Shown one piece after another: positions 23,237 to 64,000 of a DNA stretch of 64,000 bases. Both the position numbers and the translations under genes were made by a program. This DNA comes from a virus, in IMG/VR virus record IMGVR_UViG_3300014720_000016. One strand, given 5' to 3'. Position 1 is the first letter of the stretch. Every line of letters begins with the position of its first letter. Below the pieces are notes generated by a model. That model was not told where the DNA came from. It did not search any database and worked only from the letters and a program-made list of their open reading frames with translations.

Positions 23237-24010
23237 ATGAAAATCTCGGTAATCATGCAGTCTTACTTGGGCGAATACCCCGGAGCCCGCAGCAACCCCA
23301 AATATAAATTTGTACGGGCAGTCAACAGTTTCCTGCTCCAAAAGCATCCCGATAAAGAGCTTATCATAGTCTCTGACGGCTGCGAGGACACTAAGGCGCT
23401 GTATGAGAACTGCTTCTCATCTTTTTCTAATATCAAATTCGCTTATGTCGGGCGCGGCGATCTGCCGCGGACTTATGAAGTAAAGGATAACAAGAAGCAC
23501 TTCCGCGGCATACCACGCGAGGTTGGCAGGACGCTCGCAGACGCTGACCTGATAACTTATATGGATGCCGATGACATCATGATGCCATCGCGACTATCGC
23601 ATATAAATGCAGGCTGGCAAAACGCAGATGCGTCCAAGCTGTGGTCATATAGCACGATTGTTCTTGAGCCGAAGAACGAAGCATTCAGTGCCGTCTCAAA
23701 CGATGAGATCGATCTGCGGTTGTTTGGGTTCCCAATCGATACGCCCGTGTCTATACACTCTCTATGTCCTCCCGGACATATGGCATCCGCGCCATGGCTA
23801 ATAGTTCACAGGCCGCAGGTGAAAGCCAAGTGGCAGGATACGTTCGACGAGCTTGACGAGAGCGGAAAGAAGGTTTCTGGTAGTAGCGAAGACGTGCGAT
23901 TCGTAGACGATCTTTACAAAGAATCCAGCGGCCATAAGTACGACTCGCCTACATACGTTCTCTGTCACCGTAAAGCTGCGGCATCGGGCCAAGGTTCTTG
24001 GGATATATAG
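23237..24010 (+). CDS. GT-A (GT2-like) glycosyltransferase
   Basis: MKISVIM..S, ELIIVSDG, R..G, YMDADD, SED; AGGAG RBS. Confidence 0.88.
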   Translation: MKISVIMQSYLGEYPGARSNPKYKFVRAVNSFLLQKHPDKELIIVSDGCEDTKALYENCFSSFSNIKFAYVGRGDLPRTYEVKDNKKHFRGIPREVGRTLADADLITYMDADDIMMPSRLSHINAGWQNADASKLWSYSTIVLEPKNEAFSAVSNDEIDLRLFGFPIDTPVSIHSLCPPGHMASAPWLIVHRPQVKAKWQDTFDELDESGKKVSGSSEDVRFVDDLYKESSGHKYDSPTYVLCHRKAAASGQGSWDI

Positions 24011-24019
24011 AGGAAAGTT

Positions 24020-24793
24020 TTGAGGATCTCAGTAATAATGCAGTCTTATCTAGGCGAGTATCCAGGAGCTAGAAGTAATCCTGGTTATAAGTTCGTGCGG
24101 GCCGTCAACAGCTTCCTACTCCAAAGGCACCCAGATAAAGAGCTTGTCATAGTATCTGACGGCTGCGAAGACACCAAGGCGCTGTACGAAAACTGCTTCT
24201 CGGACTTTGAGAATATAAAGTTTGCCTATGTCGGACGTGGAAATATGCCACGGATGAGACAGGTAAGGGACGGCAAGAGGCACTTCCGCGGCCTGCCGCG
24301 ACAGGTGGGCCGAACCCTGGCATCAGGAGATATAATCACCTACATGGATGCCGACGACCTAATGCTGCCTAATAGATTATCTCAACTCAATAGCGCGTGG
24401 CTACAAGCAGGCCCCGACAAAATATGGGCATACAATACAATGGTTGTCCAACCAAAGACACCTAGCTTTATACTAGCTACAGACTCCCCTATTGATCTGC
24501 GCCTATTTGGTTTTCCTATAAACGAGCCGGTGTACGCCGGCCATATGGCAAAGCCCGGATACATGATTGCATCTCCACCTGCCCTGTCTCATAGGCCAGG
24601 CGTCAAGAGCGAATGGAAAGATACTTACGAAGAGTCTGATGCAAATGGCAGGAAGATCGCTGGAGGCAGCGAAGACGCATCCTTTGTAGATGGACTTCGA
24701 TCAGAAGCTCCCGGCTGCAAGCACGACTCGCCATCGTACGTTGTTTGCCATTACAAAGGCGATCCATCGTGCCCAGGCGGCTGGGACATTTAA
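24020..24793 (+). CDS. GT-A (GT2-like) glycosyltransferase, tandem paralogue
   Basis: Same length and near-identical N-terminal half as 23237-24010; YMDADD. Confidence 0.88.
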   Translation: MRISVIMQSYLGEYPGARSNPGYKFVRAVNSFLLQRHPDKELVIVSDGCEDTKALYENCFSDFENIKFAYVGRGNMPRMRQVRDGKRHFRGLPRQVGRTLASGDIITYMDADDLMLPNRLSQLNSAWLQAGPDKIWAYNTMVVQPKTPSFILATDSPIDLRLFGFPINEPVYAGHMAKPGYMIASPPALSHRPGVKSEWKDTYEESDANGRKIAGGSEDASFVDGLRSEAPGCKHDSPSYVVCHYKGDPSCPGGWDI

Positions 24794-24814
24794 TCAAGGA
24801 TGTAACTGAAAGCT

Positions 24815-25969
24815 ATGACAAAAACAAACTCAAGAAAAGTTCGCATCGCCATAACCATAAACCTTACTGACCCGAACGCCTCCTTCTTTGGGAACGGTCT
24901 GCGCCAGAACGTAGTGACCCTACGCGACCTTTTTGAGAAGTGCGAGAACGTCTCGGACTCCTACATAGTAAACTTCTCTAATACGGTGTTCCCCCCAGAT
25001 TATAATGGTCCATGGAAGCCATACCTCCAGCATCTAATCTCTTTTGAAGATGCGCTAAAGAAATGCGACCTGTTGGTACTGGCTACTGCCAAACCTAACC
25101 CTGCCCAGGATGCCAAGATAAAGGCCGCGGGCATCAAGACGGTCAACCACATCATGGGGCCTGAGTTCGCCATCATGACTGAGCAGATCCTATTTAAGGA
25201 TGAGAAGCGCGGCCTTTATAGCAGGGATCGGGGCAGCGTATCTGCCACATGGATCTCTCCCCATTTCTTTGAGCGAGATCGCTGCCTGTTCGAGACAGTG
25301 AACGACTGCCCTTCTTATGAAGCGCCCTATGTCTGGAGCCCGACATTTATCGAGGCAGACGCACAGCGACTGAAAGACGGCGATCCTGCCAAGTATCCCG
25401 GTAAATACATTCCGGGCCGCAGCGCCAAGCGCATCTCTGTATTCGAGCCAAATATAAACGTCATCAAGACGAGCCTCGTCTCGGTAATGGCTATTGAGCG
25501 TGCCTACCGTCAGTGGCCAGAAGCGATTGAAACATCAAGCATCTTCTGCACATCTGGCATCGCAACCAAGCAGGATACCATAGACTTTGTAGGCGGCCTT
25601 GATGTCTATCGAGCCAAGAAGATGTTTTTCAATAAGCGCTATCCAATTACCTGGGCGCTACAAACCCACACAGACATAGTGCTCAGCCACCAGAACCAGT
25701 GCGAACTTAATTACTTGTGGCTAGATGCCGCTTGGCTAGGCTACCCCGTAATTCACAACAGCCCAATGATGCAAGACCTTGGCTGGTACTACCGGGACAA
25801 TGATATCGCTACCGCAGCCCGGCACATCAAAGACATTGTAGATTCTTTTGATGCTAAGCACGAGGAGTATCTTCATGCTTCTCGCGGATATGCGCGGCGC
25901 TTTATGATCGGCAATCATGCCAACGTACGCGGGTACGAGAAGCTCATCTCTCAGGTCATGGATTCCTGA
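24815..25969 (+). CDS. DUF2827-like putative glycosyltransferase
   Basis: NGLRQN, WSP, FEPNINVIKT, DIVLSHQ..LNY..GYPVIHNS pattern. Confidence 0.75.
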   Translation: MTKTNSRKVRIAITINLTDPNASFFGNGLRQNVVTLRDLFEKCENVSDSYIVNFSNTVFPPDYNGPWKPYLQHLISFEDALKKCDLLVLATAKPNPAQDAKIKAAGIKTVNHIMGPEFAIMTEQILFKDEKRGLYSRDRGSVSATWISPHFFERDRCLFETVNDCPSYEAPYVWSPTFIEADAQRLKDGDPAKYPGKYIPGRSAKRISVFEPNINVIKTSLVSVMAIERAYRQWPEAIETSSIFCTSGIATKQDTIDFVGGLDVYRAKKMFFNKRYPITWALQTHTDIVLSHQNQCELNYLWLDAAWLGYPVIHNSPMMQDLGWYYRDNDIATAARHIKDIVDSFDAKHEEYLHASRGYARRFMIGNHANVRGYEKLISQVMDS

Positions 25970-26011
25970 TCGGGCTGATGTAAAGGGAATGCTCAAGAAA
26001 CGAGGTCAACA

Positions 26012-27283
26012 TTGAAACTGATAGCCGTCTATAATGTGCCAGATCTTCCTAACCTGGAGTTCAACCATCGCAAGTATGCAGACCGCCATGGCTTGCAATT
26101 CGAACGAGTGGTTCTTGGAACTGACAGCCTCGCAGAGAGGTACTCCGCTTATCTAGAGGCACTACAGAAGAATCCGGGCGAAACAATCATGTTCGTTGAC
26201 AATCACACATACTTCGCCAACTTTGACTTCCTGCCACAGCCCGAAGGGGACTGTCTGCTCCAGAAGCATGAAGACACCTACATCACTGGTCTTTTCATAG
26301 TAAAGAGTAATGAGGCCACAGCCCTGTGTTTCGAGCAGGCCCTTATGCTAGTCAACAAGCATGGCTATATGATGGGCGGGTGGCAAGAGATCAAGCGGAG
26401 CAAGATGGTATTCCCGAAAGGCTTCTCTAAAGAATATCCGCATAAACAGGACGGAGTATACCTGTGCGCAACCGTCTATGCTCACAATAACATATTAACA
26501 GTGGCCGATCAAAAGGCGGTGCTCGCGGTCACGTTTGCACACGCAAAGATGAAACCAGACGAGTGCGATTATTACGCAGAGGCTATGTGCAGCAGGCAAG
26601 GCGCATCTCCAGCTATTCCAGCCGAAGGCTTTGAGTGCTTCAACCCAGGCGGCAAGCACGCCTTTGTAACCATGTACACGCCCAATATCGCTGAGATGGG
26701 TATCCTGTCCGAAGAAAATCTAAAACTTTATTGCGCCAAGAACGACATTACCTACTACATCTACCGCGGTGTTCCAGCCGATCTAGCTGCTGCCGGCGTA
26801 GCAGACGCATGGGTCAAGCCCTGGTTAATCCTAAAGCATTTCGATCCGCACGTCACCGTATCATGGATCGATTCAGATATACTTATTGGCCCGGACTGGA
26901 AGTTAGACTTCACCCGCGAAGTAGCCTGTTTCAAAGACCCGCTGTTTACTTTCAATTCAGGCTTTATGATGTTTGCCACTACAGATAAAAATCGTGCGCT
27001 GCTGGATGACGTGATCGCTAGCATCCGCGCAATCAACGGCAAGCTGGAAGGGGTATATAACCATGGCGGCGATCAGCCCCGGTTTATTGATGCCGTGCTC
27101 AAGCACTACCCGGGATATGCTCCGCTAAGCGCGCGCCTCGGCAATACGCATCCGGGCTTTCCAAGCTCGATACCTCCGGCAGCAACAGACAAGATGCTGC
27201 ACTTCATGGGGTATGCAAAGCCGATACGGACAGCGCTTATGGCAGGTTACTCCAGTGTGATGAACCGCAAGTATAAGTGCTAA
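26012..27283 (+). CDS. two-domain GT-A glycosyltransferase (GT34/Mnn10-like)
   Basis: WVKP, WIDSD (DxD), FNSG, GDQ, HFMG; degenerate N-terminal copy. Confidence 0.7.
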   Translation: MKLIAVYNVPDLPNLEFNHRKYADRHGLQFERVVLGTDSLAERYSAYLEALQKNPGETIMFVDNHTYFANFDFLPQPEGDCLLQKHEDTYITGLFIVKSNEATALCFEQALMLVNKHGYMMGGWQEIKRSKMVFPKGFSKEYPHKQDGVYLCATVYAHNNILTVADQKAVLAVTFAHAKMKPDECDYYAEAMCSRQGASPAIPAEGFECFNPGGKHAFVTMYTPNIAEMGILSEENLKLYCAKNDITYYIYRGVPADLAAAGVADAWVKPWLILKHFDPHVTVSWIDSDILIGPDWKLDFTREVACFKDPLFTFNSGFMMFATTDKNRALLDDVIASIRAINGKLEGVYNHGGDQPRFIDAVLKHYPGYAPLSARLGNTHPGFPSSIPPAATDKMLHFMGYAKPIRTALMAGYSSVMNRKYKC

Positions 27284-45524: not shown

Positions 45525-45600
45525 TGGTGGACCCGATGGGGCACGATCCCACGACCTCCAGAATGCAAATCTGGCGCTCTCCCAGCTGAGCTACGAGCCC
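45525..45600 (-). tRNA. tRNA-Ala(UGC), CCA encoded
   Basis: Acceptor GGGCTCG/CGGGTCC with G3:U70; D arm GCTC/GAGC; CCAGA-TTTGCAT-TCTGG; T-loop ATCGTGC. Confidence 0.92.
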
Positions 45601-49608: not shown

Positions 49609-49698
49609 TACTGCTCCAGCGCAATAGTAACCGGCGGCAGGACTCGCACCTGCGTCTCCCGTGAACAATACGGGGCTTTGCTACTAAGCTACACCGAT

Positions 49699-60996: not shown

Positions 60997-61518
60997 TCAG
61001 AGAATGGACATTTCGTTGGAAGCTGGGGTATAAGAACCACGAACACGGAGCCAGTTCTCCATGCCAGCAAGATCATGAAAGAAAAAACGCTTGTCGCAAA
61101 CAATGGTATGGTATGGGGCTACTGTGTGATCGACAACACTAGGAACACGCAGCATCAGGTTCATGACATTGAGCAGAGCGCCATAGCCACACTCCTGCTT
61201 CTGACCCTTCTTGACAAGCGGGTGTTCCTCGGGGGAATCAGTAGGCAGCAGTTGCAGTTGCAGCCCGTCGCCCTCTTTCAAGCGACCGTCAAAGAACTCG
61301 AACACTGTGCGGCAGATAACCGCCGGGTCGCGGACATCGGGCATACGGAAGTCAGGATTAGCAGCGGCAGTATCCCGCAGGTGGGAGACAACCGCTTCCG
61401 TCAGGGCATCAGCCAGGAGCAGGTAGACGCTAAACCACCTGCCATGAGCCTCGGCTTTTTCAGGAGCAATACCGGGCAAGCGGGCAAACGATGCGACAGC
61501 GTTATCATACAGGCTCAT
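60997..61518 (-). CDS. hypothetical protein
   Basis: GGAGG RBS. Confidence 0.75.
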   Translation of the reverse strand: MSLYDNAVASFARLPGIAPEKAEAHGRWFSVYLLLADALTEAVVSHLRDTAAANPDFRMPDVRDPAVICRTVFEFFDGRLKEGDGLQLQLLPTDSPEEHPLVKKGQKQECGYGALLNVMNLMLRVPSVVDHTVAPYHTIVCDKRFFFHDLAGMENWLRVRGSYTPASNEMSIL

Positions 61519-61530
61519 GGCAATACCTCC

Positions 61531-61836
61531 TCAGTTGCGGTCACGAAAAACCGAGAAACTTACCCAGAGAACGTCCTCAAACTCCTTGATTGAGAACAGG
61601 TGAATGCCACGGCCTCGCACTCCGGCATCCTCTTTCAGTTGGCAGACCGGCTGGATGCCAAACACTCGGCGTACATCATCCGGCTCTTGACCTGCAATGT
61701 ACCGGAAGAAAGCCGCGCCAAAGTTTGGATTGTTTCTAATCCAAGCCTCACGGGTGCTCTCAGCACGCATCCAGTTGCGAATATCAGCGATGGTGCCGGT
61801 ATGAGCCGGCTTCTCTGCAACAATCACGAGACTCAT
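61531..61836 (-). CDS. hypothetical protein
   Basis: GAGG RBS; 30 nt after degenerate motif. Confidence 0.7.
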   Translation of the reverse strand: MSLVIVAEKPAHTGTIADIRNWMRAESTREAWIRNNPNFGAAFFRYIAGQEPDDVRRVFGIQPVCQLKEDAGVRGRGIHLFSIKEFEDVLWVSFSVFRDRN

Positions 61837-61865
61837 GGTATCCCTCGTTCGGTGGTTGCGGTAGA

Positions 61866-61888
61866 GGAGCGGGGTGACCCGGCATTAG
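61866..61888 (-). promoter_or_regulatory. recurrent oriented motif (degenerate)
   Basis: GGAGC-GGGGTGAC-CCGGCATTAG. Confidence 0.5.
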
Positions 61889-61964
61889 GCCCACCCGGTA
61901 TAACAGAGCGCAACCCGCTCTGCTACGCACTCGCCGTGTGCGGCGAGCGGCGTTCTGCACTTCA

Positions 61965-61987
61965 GGATCGGGCCGCACCGGCTTTAG
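61965..61987 (-). promoter_or_regulatory. recurrent oriented motif
   Basis: GGATC-GGGCCGCA-CCGGCTTTAG. Confidence 0.7.
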
Positions 61988-62270
61988 GCCCGACCCCGTC
62001 TGTCAGAATACCGCTTGTCACTAACAGCAATCAACAAACTTCTACCAGCTAAAGCAACAGAGTGCTGGCACATATCCCGCAGACAGCAAGCAGGTATGTA
62101 GTATATACCCGTACATACAGGTATATACCCGTAAAGAAAAGAAACTCTCTCCCTAGCGGTGTCGGGCGGTTTCACCTATATCCTTTCCGAAACTACCACC
62201 AGACAGAAAACTTTTGCAAAAAAACACGTCTAGCGATTATGTCAACCGGCATCTGGAGGGAAGGGAAAGG

Positions 62271-62565
62271 GGATCGTTTTCTACCGGCTTTAGGATCGCA
62301 ATAGTCAGAAAAAAAAGAAAACTGCTACAGGATCAGTTCCCACCGGCTTTAGTGCCAATAAGAAAATAAAGACACACCTATCCCGTCCCCGGTTGTCCCG
62401 TTGACACGCACGCAGGAGGATCGGTTTCCACCGGCTTTAGGCCAGATCCCGTTTGTCATGTACCAGCAAAGAGCAACCGCTAGGGGATCACAGGACACCG
62501 GCTTTAGGCCCAATGCCAGCTACCAGCAAGCCAACCCGATAAGGATCAACCCGCACCGGCTTTAG
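62271..62565 (-). repeat. cluster of five direct copies of the GGATC-N8-CCGGCTTTAG motif
   Basis: Copies start at 62271, 62330, 62418, 62485 and 62543 in A-rich non-coding DNA. Confidence 0.9.
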
Positions 62566-62739
62566 GCCAGATCCCGTCTGTCAGAATACAACTAGGAGAG
62601 ACAGCTACCAGGCAAAAAAAAGACAATAGTGCACCCGCCCCCGGTCGTCCCGTTGGCAAAAAAATGCAGGTTATTACCACTAGGGGCTTTCCCCTAGCAG
62701 GGGAAGGGAGCCGGGTTGCCCCGGCCCCCTCCCATCCGG

Positions 62740-63165
62740 TCACTTGACCTTGGCAACAACCGCTGCAAGGCGGTCGGCAAGGCGAAGCACCTCGGCACGG
62801 CTGGCTTCGGTACCAGCGGTACCTACCCCGTCAATCTTGACGGAGAGGCGGTCTGCGTTCTCACGCAGGAACTCAACACCCTTGTCAGTCAGGATGAGGT
62901 CCAGCGTCATCCCCACAAAGTGCGGGGCGTAGAGGGTGGTTGGGAAGCGGGCACTGGTCCCGTAGATGCTAATGCACCCCTTCTCTGAAACCTTGGCTGA
63001 GTACCCTCGTACCCCGCCAGCCTTGGCCTTCTCAGCGGCATCGGCTCGCGCCTTCTCCGCTGCCAGTGCGGCCTGAGCCGCCTGCAACTGGGCAAGCAGG
63101 GCAGCCACATCCGGGCTGGTGGCAGTGTTATTGGCGACGGGCGTTCCGACCTTGATGAGCGTCAT
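62740..63165 (-). CDS. KVSEKG..FP.TLY family protein (paralogue of 49741-50157)
   Basis: MTLIKV start after GGAG; GYSAKVSEKGCISIYG..FPTTLYAPHFVG. Confidence 0.8.
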   Translation of the reverse strand: MTLIKVGTPVANNTATSPDVAALLAQLQAAQAALAAEKARADAAEKAKAGGVRGYSAKVSEKGCISIYGTSARFPTTLYAPHFVGMTLDLILTDKGVEFLRENADRLSVKIDGVGTAGTEASRAEVLRLADRLAAVVAKVK

Positions 63166-63266
63166 GGTGCTCTCCCTTGTATTCAGGCTCCACAGGCTAC
63201 CCGACCACCGGGCACCCCGCTTCACCTTTGCGACCCCATGTGTGGGGGCCGCCGTTCTGCTCAAGA

Positions 63267-63835
63267 GGATCGGGCCGCACCGGCTTTAGGCCCGACCCCG
63301 ACTGTCAGGAAACAATCGACAAAATATCATATGCAAACCTGCAAACCTGTCAGGTGCCAGATGCCATCCCCTAAGAAAACCCAAAGGGGATCAATCAGCA
63401 CCGGCTTTAGTGTCAGTAAAAAAATAACAAGTTATCACATGCCAAACCCTAGCAGGATCACATACCACCGGCTTTAGTACCAAGTGACAGCGACAATAGT
63501 AGCCCCGCCCCCGGTTGTCCCGTTGGCATAATCAAAAAAAGATAACAGCCACACCATGTAGGTGCTGGTAGTATAACAGGCTATAGCCTGCCGCATAGGT
63601 TTATAAGTATGCCTCTACCCGTAGGGAGACAGATCGCGCACACATGAGGATCGTTTTCCACCGGCTTTAGTCCCGGTCACAATATCAGAAAAACTTGCAA
63701 ACCCTAGCATGTCTAGTCAAATGATTATGGTTCTCAACCTCACTATCCTTTCCTAGCTAATAGCAGATACACCCCTCCCGCCCCCGTTTGTCACGTTGGC
63801 ACGCACGCATGAGGATCGTTCGCAACCGGCTTTAG
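63267..63835 (-). repeat. cluster of five direct copies of the motif
   Basis: Copies start at 63267, 63388, 63455, 63648 and 63813. Confidence 0.9.
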
Positions 63836-63847
63836 GCCCGGCAGCCG

Positions 63848-63875
63848 TACCATATGTGACAGGCCGCATATGGTA
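63848..63875. repeat. inverted repeat at the motif orientation switch
   Basis: TACCATATG-N10-CATATGGTA. Confidence 0.85.
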
Positions 63876-63899
63876 TGCCACTGTCAGACCGGGTCGGCA

Positions 63900-63922
63900 C
63901 TAAAGCCGGTCGTTCCTGATCC
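63900..63922 (+). promoter_or_regulatory. recurrent motif in the opposite orientation
   Basis: CTAAAGCCGG-TCGTTCCT-GATCC, the only inverted copy seen. Confidence 0.75.
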
Positions 63923-64000
63923 TACAAAGAAAAATGGCCTGTATGTCAGAAAAAAAGACAATAGTACGCCCGCCCCCGCTTGTCGCGTTGGCCACACACA

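Follow-up and report, generated by a model that had tools for sequence, protein, structure and literature searches.

What is a largely non-coding stretch of DNA, crowded with copies of one motif most of which head no gene, for? The question is raised by the last two kilobases (positions 62,000 to 64,000) of a 64,000-nucleotide (nt) stretch of the IMG/VR virus record IMGVR_UViG_3300014720_000016, which we call the window. This end of the window is a conserved, mostly non-coding control region in an uncultured jumbo phage of ~370 kilobases (kb). The original prediction, made from the letters of the window, took its array of motifs to be the center of a divergent early region arranged about a palindrome and offered three functions: an iteron-like replication origin, a packaging or terminus site, or a promoter battery that loads or titrates a cognate protein. 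The promoter battery fits best, and we put at about an even chance the reading that the array is a tandem battery of promoters that would yield short structured RNAs, either leaders or non-coding, and would include a sense/antisense pair. The origin survives as a rival; the divergent center does not survive.

We found no near match to the window among GenBank phages. A motif scan located one complete IMG/VR contig of 371,675 base pairs (bp), G001, whose ends overlap by 127 bp and which is therefore a circular assembly. Homologues of a 141-amino-acid (aa) protein encoded inside the array located six more independent assemblies that cover it (L037, L038, L043, L046, L040 and L044). L037 is the closest relative, with an embedded protein that is 92% identical and aligned array positions that are ~88% identical; the window, L037, L043 and L046 are the four closest genomes, and G001, L044 and L040 are more distant.

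The motif, M1, reads GGATC-N7-NCCGGCTTTAG on the plus strand and CCGGnCCTAAA-N13-GATCC(T) on the minus strand, which is the gene (sense) strand; the strictly kept spacing GGATC-N7-NCCGG equals the N8 spacer of the original prediction. The features of the array are given here, and for the eleven minus-strand M1 copies the first coordinate of each range is the start on the plus strand:

62271-62293, 62330-62352, 62418-62440, 62485-62507 and 62543-62565, minus strand: five tandem M1 copies, sense CCTAAAGCCGGTG-N6-GATCC, 58-88 nt from start to start
63267-63289, 63388-63410, 63455-63477, 63648-63670 and 63813-63835, minus strand: five further M1 copies, of which the one at 63267 heads the 141-aa gene
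61965-61987, minus strand: M1 of the GC-rich, gene-associated type, heading a 101-aa gene (61531-61836) and the long early arm
63900-63922, plus strand: inverted M1, the only full inverted copy in the window
63848-63875, no strand: palindrome TACCATATG-N10-CATATGGTA, between the back-to-back M1 pair
62740-63165, minus strand: 141-aa gene, the only gene inside the array, with 68 homologues by protein search
61990-62262, minus strand: non-coding leader of 270 nt, between the last promoter of the array and the M1 at 61965

An 11-mer core allowing at most one mismatch has 28 matches in the window against 0.78 expected, and the full bipartite pattern gives 30 copies on the plus strand and one inverted copy. 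The pattern CTAAA-N13-GATCY occurs in G001 77 times on the gene strand versus twice on the other, and only from ~350.7 kb through the contig start to ~123 kb, where the genes are co-oriented almost throughout. The tandem group from 62271 to 62565 keeps its positions in L037, L043 and L046, with gains and losses of single copies.

As a description of the window, the original prediction was borne out on every point. The ten co-oriented copies between 62271 and 63835 are present, with an eleventh at 61965, and the opposite-orientation copy and the palindrome lie where they were placed. Spacers of the ten array copies are richer in AT than those of the 20 gene-associated copies (GC 0.49 versus 0.89; Mann-Whitney p = 4e-5). 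The region is rich in A-tracts, with seven plus-strand A-runs of at least six between 62000 and 64000 against ~0.7 per 2 kb elsewhere in the window, and it is largely non-coding, with one real gene inside it and most M1 copies lacking a gene. Nor is it an assembly artefact, as the architecture recurs in at least seven independent assemblies.

M1 as a probable promoter

Placed after terminators and 30-90 nt ahead of start codons, M1 is most likely a phage-specific promoter. We base this view on its setting and its form: (i) gene-associated copies lie 15-50 nt past the upstream stop codon and mostly 27-46 nt ahead of the next start codon; (ii) the block upstream of the array in L037 holds 13 strong same-strand terminator hairpins, each 25-55 nt ahead of an M1, and after every M1 come a 5' leader and a small gene; and (iii) the conserved stretch of M1 runs from CCGG at about -35 through TAGR at the putative start. 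Without M1 the terminator-bounded genes would have no promoter. Its layout would be that of a bacterial-type promoter, with an upstream box and a -10-like GATCCT. A start ~7 nt past GATCCT would place that hexamer at about -12 to -6 and CCGGnCCTAAA at about -35 to -25, and GATCCT keeps A2 and T6, the two most conserved -10 positions. M1 is bipartite in that, of the 13 nt between CCTAAA and GATCC, the first four or five are conserved and the remainder variable.

M1 is a promoter-like motif unlike any consensus tested here. The sigma-70 consensus (TTGACA, 16-18 nt, TATAAT) is not enriched in positions 61500-64000 of the window (2 sites versus 1.3 expected) or in L037 1-11400 (2 versus 2.4), and none of these sites coincides with M1; the T4 late-promoter sequence TATAAATA is not enriched in G001. 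A scan of 185,579 species genomes for M1 returned 21 single, scattered matches and no genome with two copies at one locus; at the stringency used there is no sign in these genomes that M1 is a bacterial consensus, and no clue to the host. A literature search on the motif brought up unrelated papers only, none describing M1.

In the scenario that we favor, the array would sit where a GC-rich block of ~20 single-gene units meets a long minus-strand early arm, and M1 would probably be read by host RNA polymerase together with a specificity factor of either phage or host. The AT-richer spacers of the array copies may melt more easily. The copies are stacked 58-130 nt apart, so several promoters would feed the same short leaders, the embedded gene and the early arm. 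G001 encodes a 262-aa protein (177,957-178,745) that has a weak match to sigma region 2 and has Rad50-like and Cas4-like genes as neighbors.

Two further observations concern M1 copies near genes. Besides the good copy at 61965, the 101-aa gene is preceded by a degenerate M1-like copy (61866-61888, sense CCTAATGCCGGGTCACCCCGCTCC), which lies further downstream, at 30 nt from the start codon, and is kept in close relatives. A covarying GC hairpin around gene-associated copies does not hold up as a fixed structure: pairing reaches 58.8% of cells versus 58.2% in shuffled controls, a flank-swap test was marginal (z = -1.9, 5/200), and the GC stem is mostly a conserved G-rich/C-rich consensus.

The M2 hairpin and the inverted copy

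The array contains a second repeat, M2, that the original prediction had missed. Its plus-strand form is CCCGCCCCCGGTTGTCCCGTTGGC, and on the gene strand it reads GCC AA CGN GACAA N'CG GG GGC GGG. There are five copies in the window, all in one orientation, where 0 are expected:

63969-63992, minus strand: M2 type a, sense GCCAACGCGACAAGCGGGGGCGGG, then ACTATTGTC and a run of seven T
63777-63800, minus strand: M2 type b, starting 35 nt past the CTAAA of the M1 at 63813-63835
63504-63527, minus strand: M2 type a, preceded by a terminator-like hairpin with a run of seven T (63534-63570)
62634-62657, minus strand: M2 type a, after the 3' hairpins of the 141-aa gene and between runs of seven and eight T
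62382-62405, minus strand: M2 type b with the outer stem variant GUC...GAC, starting 35 nt past the CTAAA of the M1 at 62418-62440

M2 is confined to the array in the whole 371-kb G001 and always has one orientation. The M2 pattern, searched across viral contigs, was found in G001 and two unrelated contigs only. Promoter-adjacent units of every genome have M2 starting 29-35 nt past the CTAAA of M1, and the three promoter-linked copies of the window would lie a few nt from the putative transcript start; the third of them, at 63969, should start ~35 nt after an M1 that we place just beyond the window end.

Aligned across 35 copies with 13 distinct sequences, M2 fits the structure (((..(((.....)))..))) with 92% of cells paired. 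Three of the six stem pairs change on both sides, and the covariation score lies above 500/500 shuffles and all slid controls; the inner stem shows GG/CC, GC/GC, GU/AC and UC/GA, and the outer stem a change of C-G to U-A. U.G pairs arise only with the gene strand folded, which suggests that what folds is the sense RNA or that strand of the DNA. Tandem A.G pairs can form in the AA/GG internal loop, and the GACAA loop is the boxB pentaloop of P22 (PMC12550061). We envisage M2 as a hairpin at the 5' end of the transcript, with an 8-position stem, tandem A.G pairs and a GACAA pentaloop, that may bind a protein or stabilize the RNA and possibly marks the polymerase for read-through in the fashion of a nut or put site.

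Each of the seven genomes has densely packed M1 copies, several M2 copies, the 141-aa gene and exactly one inverted M1 in the module, whose order is invariable: a forward M1, an M2 in the same orientation 29-35 nt on, the inverted M1 after a further 66-70 nt and, after ~70-210 nt more, a forward M1 again. With this fixed order the inverted copy forms a back-to-back pair with one forward copy and faces another, and convergent transcripts would overlap over ~66 nt containing M2. By analogy with the relatives, the convergent forward M1 of the window would be just beyond position 64,000 (the window ends in GTTGGCCACACACA, and L043 carries on with GGAGGATCGGGCGGGACCGGCTTTAGG), and the inverted copy would fire rightwards across the M2 at 63969-63992, giving an RNA antisense to the transcript of that next forward M1. 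Such an antisense RNA over one M2 unit might constitute a sense/antisense or convergent-transcription switch. A 22-codon open reading frame (ORF) after the inverted copy was rejected as a gene: most of the changes in it are non-synonymous, it lacks a ribosome-binding site, and it is missing from G001, L040 and L044.

This arrangement differs from the one that the original prediction had drawn from the inverted copy, in which motifs and genes would switch to the plus strand past the window end. In the relatives the orientation stays minus. L037 reproduces the local order of the window exactly, down to the palindrome and to the inverted copy with GATCCTACAAAGAAAAATG after it. Past the inverted copy, M1 recurs 21 times in L037 at intervals of 110-630 nt, always in the same orientation, and all called genes there are on the same strand. 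M1 and genes are likewise same-oriented beyond the inverted copy in L040, L043, L046 and G001, where the upstream copies of G001 are the variant CCTAAAAACA...GATCCTGTTAG. The reading of the array as the center of a divergent early region is therefore refuted. The palindrome, which was to have been the center of symmetry, is present in the window and in L037, L043 and L046. In L040 two CATATG sites occur without such a palindrome, and it is absent from G001 and L044. Confined as it is to the four closest genomes, it is therefore not the pivot of the structure, and is possibly an operator. The gene-orientation switch of G001 lies near 350.7 kb, 11 kb further than the array.

The DNA between the motifs is itself under constraint. 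Outside the motif cores, non-coding identity among the four close genomes is 0.84-0.91 versus 0.74-0.88 at third-codon positions of the embedded gene, and is the higher of the two in six of six genome pairs; small ORFs in the array other than the 141-aa gene are broken in relatives by indels that are not multiples of three. We conclude from these two results that the array DNA is constrained and not coding. All seven T-runs of at least six are on the sense strand, the plus strand having A-runs only and no T-runs between 62000 and 64000, and they mostly follow weak hairpins, as expected for the ends of short transcripts. The sense-strand runs of seven or eight T follow weak or AT-rich stems only; strong terminators occur in the upstream block of the relatives. 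Over most of the length of the 270-nt leader 86-90% of columns are invariant across four genomes, and its thermodynamic stability is no better than that of shuffles.

The leader also holds two features that stand apart. On its minus strand, 62236-62244 is an extended -10-like TGACATAAT that might be a host-type promoter for an unannotated RNA. At 62101-62131 are two copies of CGGGTATATAC, ~20 nt apart, with the palindrome GGTATATACC inside, which have an iteron- or operator-like look; there are 2-4 such copies in close relatives, one in L040 and none in the G001 and L044 arrays. An Rfam search gave no match above threshold, and its sub-threshold mir-10 match fell on the GGTATATACC palindrome.

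Several points weigh against the promoter battery with structured RNAs. Promoter activity and start sites are inferences, as are the polymerase or factor that reads M1 and the role of the RNAs. No M1-reading polymerase or factor was found in G001 with the Pfam families for T7-type RNA polymerase (PF00940), Rpb2_6, and MotA/AsiA (PF09158 and PF09010); the negatives for phage-specific families are weak because the control genomes were also silent for PF00940, PF09158 and PF09010. With 13 nt between them, CCTAAA and GATCC are too close for a classic -35/-10 pair, and promoters 58-67 nt apart could not all be occupied simultaneously. Of the five M2 copies in the window, two have no promoter next to them and lie between T-runs after hairpins. 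Folding energies of M2 segments are no better than those of shuffles (z 0 to -1), which leaves the structure dependent on covariation among the 13 distinct sequences, and the excess of non-coding conservation is modest evidence because the four closest genomes share recent ancestry.

It may be asked whether transcripts need come into it at all. M1 could be bound by a specificity factor, a repressor or a partition-type protein in a pure loading or titration array, the transcripts having no role; oriented repressor sites of the stoperator type and centromere-like repeat arrays are models for this. Eleven high-quality sites in 1.9 kb, most of them without a gene, are what such an array would look like, and an asymmetric motif strictly co-oriented with transcription over ~140 kb recalls the stoperators of the L5 type. 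However, the fixed M1-M2 spacing, the covarying M2, the sense-strand T-runs and the terminator-M1-gene units are all left unexplained, and no cognate protein was identified. We regard this explanation as quite improbable.

A more elaborate version of the promoter battery would make the array an RNA control hub of a kind new to giant phages, its transcripts arising from a hitherto undescribed class of promoter and starting with M2. M2, with its boxB-like hairpin, would load a factor onto the polymerase, which through antitermination or some other modification would carry transcription along a ~130-kb early arm studded with hairpins; the UUGUC loop of the RNA from the lone antisense promoter would form kissing contacts with all M2 copies and shut the system off; and the hub would time the move out of the GC-rich pre-early block and into the early arm. 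We offer this as a distinctly doubtful proposal.

A possible replication origin or genome end, and the surrounding genome

A transcription-activated origin is possible, though in our judgment unlikely. Under this model M1 transcripts would form R-loops at the G-cluster of M2 (GGGGGCGGG, on the non-template strand), with the T/A-runs after it, and would prime replication or open the DNA. Antisense RNA from the inverted copy could then control initiation, with M2, the CATATG palindromes and the GGTATATACC repeats as binding sites. Known models are the primary origin of T7, where tandem phage promoters adjoin an AT-rich stretch, and its phiOL and phiOR, the R-loops of T4 oriF and oriG, and the RNA II/RNA I pair of ColE1. 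Consistent with this model, the 371-kb genome has M2 and the dense array at one place only, the non-coding DNA is constrained, and the locus combines co-oriented repeats, short palindromes of variable copy number, strand-asymmetric T-runs and a convergent sense/antisense promoter pair kept in seven genomes. The array of G001 also lies 5-9 kb from a local minimum of cumulative GC skew. However, the array occupies 361.8-365.4 kb, away from that minimum at 353-357 kb, where the skew tracks gene orientation. Furthermore, M2 spacing is irregular (192-870 nt), unlike that of iterons; no initiator gene was recognized nearby; the array is not AT-rich overall (GC 0.52-0.58); and the palindromes are not kept in the more distant genomes. 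An equally good candidate lies elsewhere in G001, at a cluster of tandem repeats (350,329-350,627) by the gene-orientation switch.

That cluster, which corresponds to L034:10329-10627, consists of four tandem repeats of ~80-100 bp each. It sits exactly at the orientation switch and at the most negative GC skew, just before the first M1 of the block described next; an origin, terminus or packaging site could alternatively lie here.

The GC-rich block lies beyond the window:

L037:1-8700, L040:1-9700, L043:1-4700, L046:1-6500 and G001 350.7-361.3 kb: mini-gene block

It spans ~10 kb and holds ~20 very small genes, each with its own M1 and typically a strong terminator. Its GC content is 62-65%, versus 48-55% in the adjoining early arm, in five of the five genomes checked, and it resembles a host-takeover or pre-early module. 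A paralogue of the 141-aa gene closes the block in the relatives.

The block brings up another alternative, that the array is the boundary of a genome end, packaging site or injection stop, with the GC-rich block as a terminal repeat or first-entering segment. The first-step-transfer end locus of T5, rich in repeats and palindromes, and the host-takeover module in the terminal redundancy of SPO1 are the models. The sharp boundary in composition at the array in five genomes (62-65% GC upstream versus 48-55% downstream) would fit this, as would the likeness to the SPO1 module of the ~20 small genes with their individual promoters and terminators; the window apparently stops at a contig end, and L044 also breaks, a little upstream of its array and ~480 nt before its inverted copy. 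Set against this, G001 is circular with its 127-bp overlap, the assemblies of L037, L040, L043 and L046 run straight across the array, and the contig breaks may stem from the repeats themselves, if not from a real coverage or terminus feature. We hold a genome end to be very improbable. The probability that lies beyond the four readings weighed here belongs to readings not considered.

The wider genome offers some context for the array. The window carries small genes, almost all of them minus-strand, among them those for an RNA ligase, a MoxR ATPase and its VWA partner, and HNH nucleases; the early arm has two minus-strand tRNA genes, Ala-TGC (45525-45600) and Thr-TGT (49629-49698). A plus-strand island of four genes (23237-27283), which include a GT2 glycosyltransferase and a DUF2827 protein, contains no M1 oriented with its genes and is presumably served by another class of promoter. 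The 141-aa protein is modeled with an N-terminal Ala-rich helix and a small alpha/beta domain (AF2, pLDDT 76); it matched no Pfam or PHROG family, and Foldseek searches of PDB and BFVD were empty at E <= 0.001. G001 encodes a DnaE-type Pol III alpha (188,780-192,229) and a full-length Lon protease (134,540-136,960).

Significance and comparison with known systems

Giant phages that lack a recognizable RNA polymerase of their own must redirect the host enzyme, by mechanisms that are largely unexplored, and this locus is a compact, conserved and testable handle on that redirection. Should M1 prove to be a promoter, whatever reads it would constitute a new transcription specificity system; should the array instead be an origin, it would be a first candidate origin for this ~370-kb lake phage lineage. 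For metagenomic contigs of this group, M1 also offers a practical, strand-specific marker of the limits of the early arm.

Among systems built on repeated sites, the stoperators of cluster A mycobacteriophages resemble M1 in being asymmetric sites of ~13-23 bp, present in dozens of copies in short intergenic gaps and oriented with transcription. However, no repressor is known for M1, and the motif follows terminators and precedes every gene of the monocistronic block, which calls for initiation and not for blockage of the stoperator type. With an iteron origin the array shares co-oriented repeats, M2, but these are 192-870 nt apart, the array has a GC content of 0.52-0.58, and no initiator was recognized. 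The RNA II/RNA I pair of ColE1 and CopA/CopT of R1 have convergent promoters and fully complementary RNAs, as predicted here for RNAs of ~66 nt with GACAA and UUGUC loops; the target hairpin of our phage, in contrast, is present in 5-7 copies, and any link to replication would be hypothetical.

With respect to promoter form, T4 middle promoters (a MotA box at -30 plus a -10, with sigma appropriation) offer a parallel, since M1 has a box near -28, a -10-like hexamer ~13 nt on and no -35 hexamer at the canonical distance. The box sequence differs, however, and G001 gave no AsiA or MotA match (controls silent). Nor is kinship with T4 confirmed: the polymerase of G001 is of the DnaE type, and there was no Pfam match to Gp23 in G001, the control genomes being silent here too. 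In layout, the host-takeover module of SPO1 and the early regions of T4 and T5 are similar in packing small early genes densely in one orientation, with individual strong promoters and terminators, but the M1 consensus is unrelated to the host sigma-70 type, and to our knowledge no counterpart of a non-coding hub with M2 and an antisense promoter has been described in SPO1, T4 or T5.

The lambdoid nut site (P22 boxB) and HK022 put likewise place a short hairpin just past early promoters, with a conserved loop and a covarying stem, if M1 is taken as an early promoter. The loop of M2, a GNRA-like pentaloop, is identical to that of P22 boxB; its stem has 3+3 pairs around the tandem A.G, as opposed to five pairs. 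Unlike nut, M2 is present in 5-7 copies, two of which in the window are away from promoters, and a role in antitermination would be hypothetical. No boxA-like sequence was seen, by eye, to be conserved between GATCC and the hairpin across genomes, and among the neighboring genes the 68-aa and 101-aa proteins do not have an arginine-rich N-terminus of the N type.

Finally, T7 has several loci with a similar plan. M1 matches neither the sigma-70 nor the T7-type consensus, and T7-type promoters are conserved over ~23 contiguous bp (-17 to +6), whereas M1 is bipartite; there are 11 or 12 copies here versus 2 or 3 in T7, and the array lies inside a co-oriented region and not at a mapped genome end. 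Nevertheless, like A1-A2-A3, phiOL/phiOR and the primary origin of T7 (phi1.1A/1.1B plus an AT-rich stretch), the array would be a stack of strong co-oriented promoters in the non-coding DNA that precedes an early region, and in both cases some promoters have no gene of their own.

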